IMG/VR virus record: IMGVR_UViG_2879765931_000007
Strand: one strand, 5' to 3'
Source of the DNA: a virus
Lineage: Duplodnaviria; Heunggongvirae; Uroviricota; Caudoviricetes
DNA: 47,296 nt
Part shown: positions 18,163 through 21,100 of the stretch, one piece after another
Layout: every line of letters begins with the position of its first letter
Numbering within the stretch: position 1 is the stretch's first letter
Program-made: the position numbers

Positions 18163-21100
18163 TGAGTTCACAGATAAAACACTCTCCAGGAAACCCGGGG
18201 CGGTTCAGCCTGATGCTTCGCACTGGTCTGGGTGCCAGACAAATTGAAGCATACCGCCAGAACTGTTGGGTGGAAGGCTTCCACTTCAAACGAGTATCTC
18301 CTTTAGGGAAGCCAGACAGTAAGCGAGGGATTATCTGGTACAACTATCCGAAGATAAATCAGTTTATCAAAGACTCATGATATGTCTAAATTACCAACAG
18401 GTGTCGAGATTCGAGGTAAATACATTCGCATCTGGTTCATGTTTCGAGGAAAACGATGTCGGGAAACATTGAAAGGCTGGGAGATTACTAACAGTAACAT
18501 TAAAAAGGCCGGGAATTTAAGAGCGTTGATAGTTCATCAAATCAGTTCCGGTGGGTAATGACTCCAACTTACTGATAGTGTTTTATGTTCAGATAATGCC
18601 CGATGACCTTGTCATGCAGCTCCACCGATTTTGAGAACGACAGTGACTTCCGTACCAGCCTTGCCAGATGTTGTCTCAGATTCAGATTATGTCGCTCAAT
18701 GCGCTGAGTGTAACGCTTGCTGATAACGTGCAGCTTTCCCTTCAGGCGTGATTCATACAGCGGCCAGCCATCCGTCATCCATACCACGACCTCAAAGGCC
18801 GACAGCAGGCTCAGAAGACGCTCCAGTGTGGCCAGAGTGCGTTCACCGAAGACGTGCGCCACAACCGTCCTCCGTATCCTGTCATACGCGTAAAACAGCC
18901 AGCGCTGACGTGATTTAGCACCGACGTAGCCCCAATGTTCGTCCATTTCAGCGCAGACAATCACATCACTGCCCGGTTGTATGCGCGAGGTTACCGACTG
19001 CGGCCTGAGTTTTTTAAGTGACGTAAAACCGTGTTGAGGCCAACGCCCATAATGCGTGCACTGGCGCGACATCCGACGCCATTCATGGCCATATCAATGA
19101 TTTTCTGGTGCGTACCGGGCTGAGAGGCGGTGTAAGTGAACTGTAGTTGCCATGTTTTACGGCAATGAGAGCAGAGATAGCGCTGATGTCCGGCAGTGCT
19201 TTTGCCGTTACGCACCACGCCTTCAGTAGCGGAGCAGGAAGGACATCTGATGGAAATGGAAGCCACGCAAGCACCTTAAAATCACCATCATACACTAAAT
19301 CAGTAAGTTGGCAGCATTACCTGACCCGTTATCTAAAACAGAATTCAATGCATTAATGGAAAGTGAAAAAGGACAGAGCCAAAACTTGTGGAAATTTGCC
19401 GTTTACTCCGGGCTTCGTCACGGGGAACTGGCAGCTCTGGCGTGGGAGGATGTGGATTTCGAGAAGGGAATTGTGAATGTCAGAAGAAACCTGACGATAC
19501 TTGATATGTTCGGTCCCCCAAAAACAAATGCCGGGATCCGGACGGTAACATTACTGCAGCCGGCTCTTGAAGCACTGAAGGAGCAATACAAACTGACCGG
19601 GCATCATCGCAAAAGCGAAATCACTTTTTATCATCGGGAGTACGGCAGAACTGAAAAACAAAAACTGCATTTTGTTTTCATGCCCAGGGTGTGTAACGAA
19701 AAACAGAAACCTTATTACTCGGTAAGCAGTTTGGGTACAAGATGGAATGCAGCAGTAAAACGTGCTGGTATTCGCCGCCGTAATCCGTACCACACGCGAC
19801 ATACTTTTGCCTGCTGGCTGTTGACGGCAGGAGCGAACCCGGCATTTATAGCCAGCCAGATGGGGCATGAAACTGCGCAAATGGTGTATGAAATTTACGG
19901 TATGTGGATTGATGACATGAACGACGAACAGATAGCCATGTTGAATGCGCGGTTATCGTAGTTGCAAAGTTTGCCCCCAATTTGCCCCATTTAGTACCAG
20001 AGAACTGAAATAATGCAAGAAAATCAACAAATTACAAAGAAAGAACAATACAACCTGAACAAGTAAGGGCAAAAATCACAACTATCTGACTCATAAGTAT
20101 TTTATTTATTTTTCAATATGTTAAACATTATCAGCGACAACAATAAGCTACGATAACCCACTCTTTTTTGCCCCTTTTTTGCCCCTTATACAGCGTTTTG
20201 CCCCATTTTTGCCATCAACAATTTTCCTCATAAAGTCATTTCAAAGCCTAATAGCTGCTCTACTTTTTTCCTCAATATCATGTCGCCAGCAGGAAACAAC
20301 CTAATCCCTGTTTTAGGCCTCAAAGCTGTTAATGATAATTATTTTCATTTTGTATAGGTTATGCTATAAAACATAGCCGTTGCTATGTTTGTTCTAATTT
20401 TGCTCACTATAGGTACTAAATTATGCACTCAATAAAAAAAGTAACCATGCTCTTGGGGTGCCTCGCCCTCACCTGCTCGATCGCATTTCAGGCAAGTGCA
20501 ACTGAAAAATTCAAGGTCATTACAACATTTACCATCATCGCGGATATGGCCAAAAACGTGGCTGGAGATGCTGCAGAAGTCTCATCCATAACCAAGCCTG
20601 GTGCAGAAATTCATGAGTATCAGCCTACCCCTGGCGATATTAAACGTGCGCAGGGGGCACAACTGATTCTCGCCAATGGTATGAATCTGGAATTGTGGTT
20701 CCAACGCTTTTACCAGCATCTCAATGGGGTTCCAGAAGTAATTGTCTCTTCGGGTGTGACGCCAGTAGGGATCACCGAAGGACCCTATGAGGGCAAACCT
20801 AATCCCCATGCATGGATGTCGCCAGATAATGCTCTGATTTACGTCGATAATATTCGTGATGCGTTGATAAAATACGATCCGGCAAATGCACAAACCTACC
20901 AACGTAATGCCGATACTTATAAAGCCAAGATTACCCAAACCCTTGCCCCCCTGCGTAAGCAGATTACGGAACTCCCTGAGAATCAGCGATGGATGGTCAC
21001 CAGTGAAGGGGCTTTTTCTTATCTCGCACGCGATTTGGGGCTAAAAGAGCTTTATCTGTGGCCGATTAATGCCGATCAACAAGGAACACCGCAGCAGGTA

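Follow-up and report, generated by a model that had tools for sequence, protein, structure and literature searches.

A very probably dead Rac-type excision module from a lambdoid prophage with sitABCD cargo: intR interrupted by an IS1-anchored deletion

Introduction

The closest described relatives of the locus analyzed here are the IntR/XisR modules of Rac and of the Rac-like prophages that integrate at ttcA. XisR, also named YdaQ, is the Rac excisionase, and the N-terminus of TtcA is replaced upon Rac integration (PMC4632033). A prophage that resembles Rac was found within ttcA in none of four S. flexneri strains, and the ttcA attB of S. flexneri is reported to be empty (PMC4632033). The window, by which we mean the whole 47,296-nt stretch of viral DNA that was analyzed, shares with these prophages the order xisR-intR-att, a 26-bp att core, and a phage-borne 5′ end of ttcA. 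In contrast to a Rac-like IntR gene, its integrase gene is split by IS1 and lacks codons 58-198, with xisR truncated as well, and in contrast to the Rac-like prophages, its att site is an attP (POP′) near pphA and ipaH and not an attR beside ttcA.

Two further systems share the gene order or the cargo of the window. Escherichia virus Lambda_2E9 (LR595860.1), a temperate lambdoid phage, has the same module order of exo...xis-int-attP-sitABCD-tail fibre, although its integrase and att module are different and its genes are all intact. The prophage of E. coli CFSAN029787 is instead split at att, with sit on the attL side by uspF and intR on the attR side by ttcA. The sit genes of the window are 98-99.6% identical to those of sit-carrying lambdoid phages (Lambda_2E9) and of the CFSAN029787 prophage. 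In S. flexneri, the part of the literature that treats the sit island (PAI sit) places sitABCD within IS-ridden phage remnants (Fisher et al., 2009, via PMC7545054), and describes an island that has undergone rearrangement and deletion and seems to have been moved through homologous and not site-specific recombination (PMC7545054). As far as that account goes, the window locus agrees with its picture of an IS-ridden unit rearranged by homologous recombination (PMC7545054).

The lesion itself also has precedents. An intact IntR has the three-domain layout of lambda Int, with arm-binding, core-binding, and catalytic parts (Pfam, Tn1549 Int alignment), whereas the fragments in the window lack the middle domain and any covalent link between the outer parts. 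The gal deletions of Reif and Saedler in 1975 are said to be a classical case of IS1-promoted adjacent deletion. Such deletions retain a single IS1, have one end exactly at an IS1 terminus, and lack a target duplication, all of which is likewise seen in the window; nested deletions that start from one IS1 terminus in related strains are a further point of agreement.

Results

The parent gene and its missing segment

The joined flanks of the IS1 were searched against 5,426 complete E. coli genomes, where the best matches are annotated xisR-intR-ttcA. The intact parent gene is intR, which encodes a 411-aa Rac-type integrase, and its closest copy lies in E. coli CFSAN029787 (positions 3175-4410 of the attR-side region, L001). 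What is left of it in the window, and what separates the two remnants, is as follows.

18382 to 18553, plus strand: intR′ N-terminal fragment, codons 1-57 (18382-18552) plus 1 nt, holding most of the arm-type DNA-binding domain
18554 to 19321, minus strand: IS1, complete, exactly 768 bp, with both terminal inverted repeats and insA/insB, without a target-site duplication
19322 to 19961, plus strand: intR′ C-terminal fragment, third base of codon 199, codons 200-411 (19323-19958), and stop, holding the complete catalytic domain

Aligned with CFSAN029787, the left flank matches up to L001 position 3346 at 99.7% identity (region compared, L001 3001-3346), and the right flank matches from position 3771 at 99.6% identity. 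The two fragments are thus not contiguous in an intact homologue, being 424 bp apart there, and the absent 424 bp correspond to nt 173-596 of the gene. The loss amounts to ~141 codons (58-198) and one base, and as 424 is not a multiple of 3, it shifts the reading frame. On this alignment the sequence-only reading was right that a complete IS1 separates two pieces of one gene and that 57 codons remain on the N-terminal side, and wrong in its estimate that about 110 residues are missing. Its C-terminal piece of 213 codons does exist as a catalytic piece, but with 212 full codons; the count of 213 residues (199-411) given by tblastn arises from the terminal CC of IS1, which happens to restore the Pro199 codon.

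An uninterrupted frame of ~411 codons is not present, the gene being split by the 768-bp element and shortened by a frameshifting loss. The N-terminal frame enters the end of IS1, reads one Gly codon, and stops at TAA (18556-18558). The C-terminal fragment is out of frame with the N-terminal piece and has no start codon of its own, and a 217-aa ORF can be read into it from a TTG at 19308 within the IS1 end (19308-19961). Both fragments are close to the intact gene: 1 of 172 nt differs in the N-terminal fragment (E53Q) and 3 of 640 nt in the C-terminal one (A338T), so that the surviving 812 nt are 99.5% identical to CFSAN029787 intR, with 4 nt differences and 0 extra stops. Judging from this near-identity, from xisR upstream, and from the 26-bp core downstream, the fragments belong to the IntR family by descent; having neither a core-binding domain nor a continuous frame, the locus would not count as a functional member of that family. 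A relocated segment, through inversion or translocation inside the window, was ruled out, as the missing 424 bp and residues 58-198 gave only chance matches across the whole window (blastn with word size 7, tblastn).

Domains lost and retained

Intact IntR consists of an arm-binding domain (PF12167, residues 5-69), a SAM-like core-binding domain (82-187), and a catalytic domain (PF00589, 205-391), as assigned by Pfam. The N-terminal fragment still matches PF12167 Arm-DNA-bind_2 (E=4.8e-20) over profile positions 1-53 of 65, the arm-binding domain having lost its last 12 residues. The SAM-like domain and the linker fall wholly inside the deletion of residues 58-198, which bears out the earlier statement that the central domain is lost. 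The C-terminal fragment matches PF00589 (E=4.2e-24) and keeps the active-site residues R231, K266, R358, H381, and Y391, as identified by alignment to Tn1549 Int (6emy); that alignment, which covers residues 150-393, places the break at 199/200 in the linker that connects the core-binding domain to the catalytic one.

By the established behavior of lambda-type integrases, fragments of this kind would not be capable of integrative or excisive recombination. With the core-binding domain gone and the halves out of frame, the product of intR would very probably be unable to integrate or excise the element, in line with the view that the integrase is non-functional. This loss of function is argued from domain logic and not from accumulated damage, because the fragments are almost undecayed.

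The near-perfect state of the C-terminal fragment raises the question of whether it is still made, as the 217-aa ORF that starts from the TTG at 19308, and keeps some activity, either topoisomerase-like or as a dominant-negative partner of another Rac-type integrase. That frame is open, all of its catalytic residues are kept, and the fragment is essentially undecayed; however, no ribosome-binding site was identified for it, and a promoter-like plus-strand site was looked for where IS1 meets the C-terminal fragment and not found, so that an outward promoter from IS1 driving the fragment was rejected. Its product would also be missing the core-binding domain, and the catalytic domain of lambda Int, taken by itself, is established not to carry out recombination. 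We regard residual activity of the fragment as highly improbable.

The IS1 copy and its junctions

Both terminal inverted repeats of the IS1 were located, where 0 matches are expected by chance, and on the minus strand the frames of insA (19266..18991) and insB (19072..18569) are open, with the A6C frameshift motif found. The 9-mers that flank the element, GTTCCGGTG on the left and TGACCCGTT on the right, are unrelated, which confirms the earlier observation that a 9-bp target duplication is absent; in intact intR, these two 9-mers lie 424 bp apart. Both ends of the 424-bp deletion coincide exactly with the IS1 termini, and alignment to the intact homologue thereby upholds an IS1-associated deletion, as proposed from the sequence. 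With a slash marking the break, the junctions observed are ...CAGTTCCGGTG/GGTAATGAC and GCATTACC/TGACCCGTTATC, and those expected of hypothetical intermediates are GCATTACC/GTTCCGGTGAATTTGAG and AAAGCCTGACCCGTT/GGTAATGAC.

Two other IS1 copies in the window differ from the one in intR by 2-3 nt. Copy 3 (37899-38666) serves as an internal control, and because it has a perfect 9-bp duplication, TACTAACAG, the duplication criterion can be said to work on the sequence of the window. Copy 2 (27726-28493) is without a duplication and adjoins a truncated IS600-like element. No exchanged 9-mers were matched among the flanks of the three copies, and an IS1 x IS1 inversion between copies in the window was rejected on that ground.

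The truncated excisionase gene

Upstream of intR, the excisionase gene has been damaged by an element of the IS3 family.

16899 to 18207, plus strand: IS3-family (IS629-like) element, ~1.3 kb, with orfA/orfB and terminal repeats
18208 to 18380, plus strand: xisR′, truncated excisionase gene, of which the 3′ 173 nt are left; residual 55-aa ORF at 18213-18380

The IS3-family element contains orfA (16956-17282) and orfB (17279/17497-18165), and has terminal repeats, TGAACCGCCCCGGG..., at both ends. It takes the place of 364 bp of the reference prophage (positions 52028-52391), made up of a DUF1187/rcbA-like gene together with 43 nt from the start of xisR. The complete XisR protein has 71 aa and matches positions 4-67 of the Pfam PF06806 profile, compared with 18-67 in the window.

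An intact attP between the integrase and sitABCD

Downstream of the integrase fragments lie an att site with its two arms, the displaced start of ttcA, and the sit operon.

19970 to 19988, plus strand: pair of TTTGCCCC motifs within the P arm, candidates for arm-type sites bound by the integrase
20013 to 20066, plus strand: phage-borne replacement 5′ end of ttcA (MQENQQITKKEQYNLNK), the same as the TtcA N-terminus at the CFSAN029787 attR
20037 to 20062, no strand assigned: Rac att core, 26 bp, AAGAAAGAACAATACAACCTGAACAA, from comparison of the window with attR (L001) and attL (L003) of CFSAN029787
20167 to 20204, plus strand: set of three TTTGCCCC motifs within the P′ arm, including two that form the 11-bp tandem unit TTTTTTGCCCC
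20423 to 23872, plus strand: sitABCD, iron/manganese ABC transporter operon, 99.6% identical to the sit genes of CFSAN029787

The window matches attR (P arm) up to 20062 and attL (P′ arm) from 20037, the overlap between the two matches being the 26-bp core. The site is an intact Rac-type attP, in which the P arm lies toward int and the P′ arm away from it. The ttcA 5′ end is orphaned here and reads into a stop codon in the P′ arm, and the int-proximal att is not next to the ttcA coding sequence, since beyond the core come the P′ arm and sitA. At the left end of the window lie pphA and ipaH, which places the block near them and not at ttcA.

The integrase and sitABCD adjoin across attP, and their arrangement, xis-int-attP-sit-tail fibre, is the one that a free phage genome has. 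In CFSAN029787, a 48-kb prophage sits at ttcA in the order uspF-attL-sitABCD-tail...xisR-intR-attR-ttcA, with int and sit 47 kb apart. Because attP separates the integrase from sitA, int and sit are neighbors only in the phage form of the gene order. The description of the integrase as lying upstream of sitABCD thus holds as far as adjacency goes, but not in the usual sense of an integrase at an island boundary, given the intact attP that intervenes. The sit genes are cargo of the phage b region that adjoins attP.

Tandem prophage remnants are found at ttcA in E. coli H22, in the order uspF-sit′...int′(231 bp)-attP-sitABCD, and they show how an attP-sit junction can sit in a chromosome. An int remnant adjoins sitA in 7 of the 5,426 complete E. 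coli genomes, where only the last 231 bp of int remain, and these too were rejected as carriers of the allele.

Around the att core cluster 5 of the 8 TTTGCCCC matches in the window, all on the plus strand, compared with ~2.1 expected in the whole window; this clustering makes the motifs candidate arm-type integrase binding sites, and that they are the arm-type site of IntR itself is a speculative side reading. The copy number of TTTTTTGCCCC differs between strains, and the spacer from int to sitA measures 431, 450, 461, or 472 bp among S. flexneri assemblies. Equally speculative is the idea that this strain-variable 11-bp tandem unit may alter attP or the sequence that lies upstream of sitABCD. 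If a superinfecting or co-resident Rac-like phage provided Rac-type IntR/XisR in trans, the fossil attP might still be recombined with ttcA or with the att of an incoming phage, which we think very unlikely; if true, it could bring about large chromosomal rearrangements or the recapture of sitABCD by phage.

Distribution of the allele

Comparison with sit loci of other Shigella and E. coli, a check suggested along with the original claim, shows that the allele is common to several S. flexneri genomes. The two junctions recur without any difference in two independent complete S. flexneri genomes, those of G1663 (CP007037) and CP034060, and the left-junction contig recurs in at least 20 assemblies. 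The IS1-fused 217-aa ORF is found verbatim in public records as 'integrase [Shigella flexneri G1663]', and so is a 58-aa N-terminal stub, under 'Arm DNA-binding domain-containing protein ... Shigella flexneri'.

S. flexneri 5a M90T (CP037923), which has 109 chromosomal IS1 copies (PMC7132871), carries a nested form of the lesion. Its right junction is unchanged and its left IS1 terminus abuts window position 7631, so that window 7632-18553, another 10,922 bp in which the N-terminal stub and xisR′ lie, is missing from it. At this second breakpoint, 7631/7632, the window has no IS1.

Among the 5,426 complete E. coli genomes, neither junction was found (0 genomes), and likewise 0 genomes showed a duplication-flanked IS1 at either junction of an intR that was intact apart from it. 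In 13 of these genomes there is an independent IS1 in or near intR, sited in xisR, at the start of int, or at different N-terminal truncations; because the IS1 lies at other positions in all 13, they were rejected as carriers of the allele or of an intermediate.

Discussion

Proposed origin of the lesion

We consider it very probable that the window holds a dead Rac-type excision module, from a lambdoid prophage with sitABCD as its cargo, in which intR was broken by an IS1-anchored deletion. The original gene was intR, encoding a 411-aa lambda-style tyrosine integrase with arm-binding, core-binding, and catalytic parts. In a first step, IS1 would have inserted into this gene; in a second, a deletion anchored at one IS1 terminus would have taken out the adjacent 424 bp, most likely through transposase-driven intramolecular transposition of IS1 into a nearby target, known as adjacent deletion. 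Such an event would leave a single IS1 between unrelated 9-mers, flanked by a 57-codon arm-binding stub that ends just inside IS1 and by a catalytic domain that is out of frame and lacks a promoter. Assembly of the intasome and binding of the core site would not be possible, and integration and excision would be precluded, because both the core-binding domain and the physical link from the arm-binding to the catalytic part are gone. The xisR gene would have been hit independently, by the IS3-family element with its 364-bp deletion, leaving the adjacent attP as an intact fossil and the sit genes probably locked in place.

The nested one-ended deletions of the window and of M90T, which share the same IS1 terminus, favor IS1-promoted adjacent deletion, of which this pattern is a hallmark. 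What counts against this account is that no single-insertion intermediate turned up in the 5,426 complete E. coli genomes, and that recombination between two direct IS1 repeats would give the same product. Two direct IS1 copies, at int nt 172/173 and 596/597, could have undergone RecA-dependent recombination that deleted the interval together with one IS1, or, in a variant of this scheme, two prophages in tandem could each have had one IS1 in their int gene. Either would likewise leave one IS1 without a duplication, and the ingredients are at hand: S. flexneri has >100 IS1 copies, IS1 hits in or near intR recur at various sites in E. coli (the 13 of 5,426 genomes above), and tandem sit-prophage remnants exist (E. 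coli H22). Yet the scheme needs two independent hits within 424 bp, or else a deletion of full prophage length, and no genome with two such IS1 copies was seen among the 5,426 complete E. coli genomes. The M90T deletion, moreover, ends at the same IS1 terminus, with no IS1 in the window at 7631/7632, which favors one-ended deletions of the transposase type. Because two hits within 424 bp would be needed and the far end of the M90T deletion is without an IS1 partner, we rate recombination between two IS1 copies lower than adjacent deletion, as an unlikely route that nevertheless deserves some weight.

IS1 is highly repetitive in this genome, and the three copies in the window are 2-3 nt apart, but an assembly artefact in which a collapsed IS1 repeat joined non-adjacent flanks of a gene that is intact or otherwise arranged can practically be dismissed, as the junctions are the same in the independent complete assemblies CP007037 and CP034060, the right junction also occurs in the PacBio-assembled M90T and in many draft contigs, and both flanks belong to one gene with order and orientation kept.

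Implications

In Shigella, both the IS burden and the formation of pseudogenes are due mainly to IS1 (PMC7373316). Pseudogenization and deletion driven by IS1 are what one expects of Shigella genomes, and the practical value of the finding is modest; public records of several S. flexneri genomes already contain the allele, with annotation, and as an instance of ordinary Shigella genome decay it is already known. The mildly novel possibilities are limited to the intact attP and the TTTGCCCC repeats, and they are speculative. For annotators, the gain is the correct parent (intR, 411 aa) and the exact lesion, in which nt 173-596 are deleted and IS1 stands in their place. The allele is also a clean lineage marker, being present in several S. 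flexneri strains, with a nested 10.9-kb loss, anchored at the same end of IS1, in M90T. For the sit genes themselves, departure by site-specific excision would be closed, because int and xis are both broken, even though attP is intact.

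Phage-form gene order between int and sitA

The region joining the Rac-type integrase gene (int, intR) to sitA, the first gene of the iron/manganese transporter operon, comprises the following features.

Features between int and sitA
19962-20423, intact Rac-type attP linking int to sitA (P arm, core, P′ arm)
19970-19988, two TTTGCCCC motifs in the P arm
20013-20066, phage-borne orphan ttcA start, within the int-sitA attP region
20037-20062, 26-bp att core, between the P and P′ arms
20167-20204, three TTTGCCCC motifs in the P′ arm

Because an intact attP connects int to sitA, the chromosome carries the phage-form gene order across 19962-20423. 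That order implies either prophages in tandem or insertion through homologous recombination, as opposed to integration via this att site. The sequence TTTGCCCC occurs eight times in the 47-kb window, and five of these copies flank the att core, all in one orientation. This layout, with two motifs on the P arm and three on the P′ arm, is lambda-like, and the motifs are possibly arm-type sites of IntR. Among S. flexneri assemblies, the 11-bp unit TTTTTTGCCCC is present in 0 to 3 tandem copies, and this variation accounts for the differing int-sitA spacers of 431, 450, 461, and 472 bp.

In E. coli H22 (NZ_CP120563.1, locus L018, 7046-10609), remnants of sit prophages lie in tandem at the ttcA/uspF locus, in the order frameshifted sit permease gene, DUF1627 remnant, the last 231 bp of int, attP, and intact sitABCD. 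The decay of int in H22 is independent of that in the window, and a junction of the H22 type between the int remnant and sitA is common to seven E. coli genomes.

Chromosomal position and a second recombinase

The left end of the window (301-5924) and the surroundings of a second recombinase hold the following features.

Left end and second recombinase
301-5924, left end, where two IS600-like copies interrupt pphA (serine/threonine phosphatase)
about 490-1753 and 2040-3303, the IS600-like copies in pphA
4209-5924, intact 571-aa ipaH effector gene, after the split pphA
29542-31038, minus strand, second tyrosine recombinase ORF, 498 aa
31023-32284, IS3-family element adjoining this ORF

The presence of pphA and ipaH at the left end places the block near pphA/yebW, not ttcA. 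The second recombinase is unrelated to IntR (~21% identical), and its counterpart in S. flexneri 5a M90T has 534 aa with a DUF6538 N-terminus; the 5′ end of the window's ORF appears to have been cut by the neighboring IS3-family element.

Insertion sequences and deletions

Insertion sequences
16899-18380, IS3-family (IS629-like) element with the xisR remainder
27726-28493, IS1 copy 2, without target duplication
37899-38666, IS1 copy 3, opposite orientation

A 10,922-bp stretch (7632-18553) is absent from M90T (CP037923, locus L010, 9104-9247), and one breakpoint of the deletion coincides precisely with the left end of the IS1 also found in the window's intR; at the far breakpoint, the window has no IS1. 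The IS629-like element, with three bases (GAA) at its left end, stands in place of 364 bp of prophage; the excisionase gene xisR lost its first 43 nt in this way. IS1 copy 2 is flanked by GCTTTTTTT versus CGCGTTAAG, and directly adjoins 949 bp of an IS600-like element that measures 1264 bp when whole; the two together span 26777-28493, and this looks like another IS1-associated truncation. IS1 copy 3 has a perfect 9-bp duplication, TACTAACAG, and is a simple insertion. Across 14470-16540, S. flexneri G1663 lacks the IS at 14470-15717, while CP034060 lacks the adjoining 15718-16540; the same prophage remnant thus differs in IS content between strains.

A direct repeat and the number of prophages

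Repeated gene
6104-6727 and 24073-24696, both minus strand, a DUF4376 tail-fibre-assembly gene, present in duplicate

These copies underlie a 712-bp direct repeat with 98% identity (6134-6845 and 24103-24814), which suggests the remnants of two related prophages and is a possible substrate for an 18-kb deletion.
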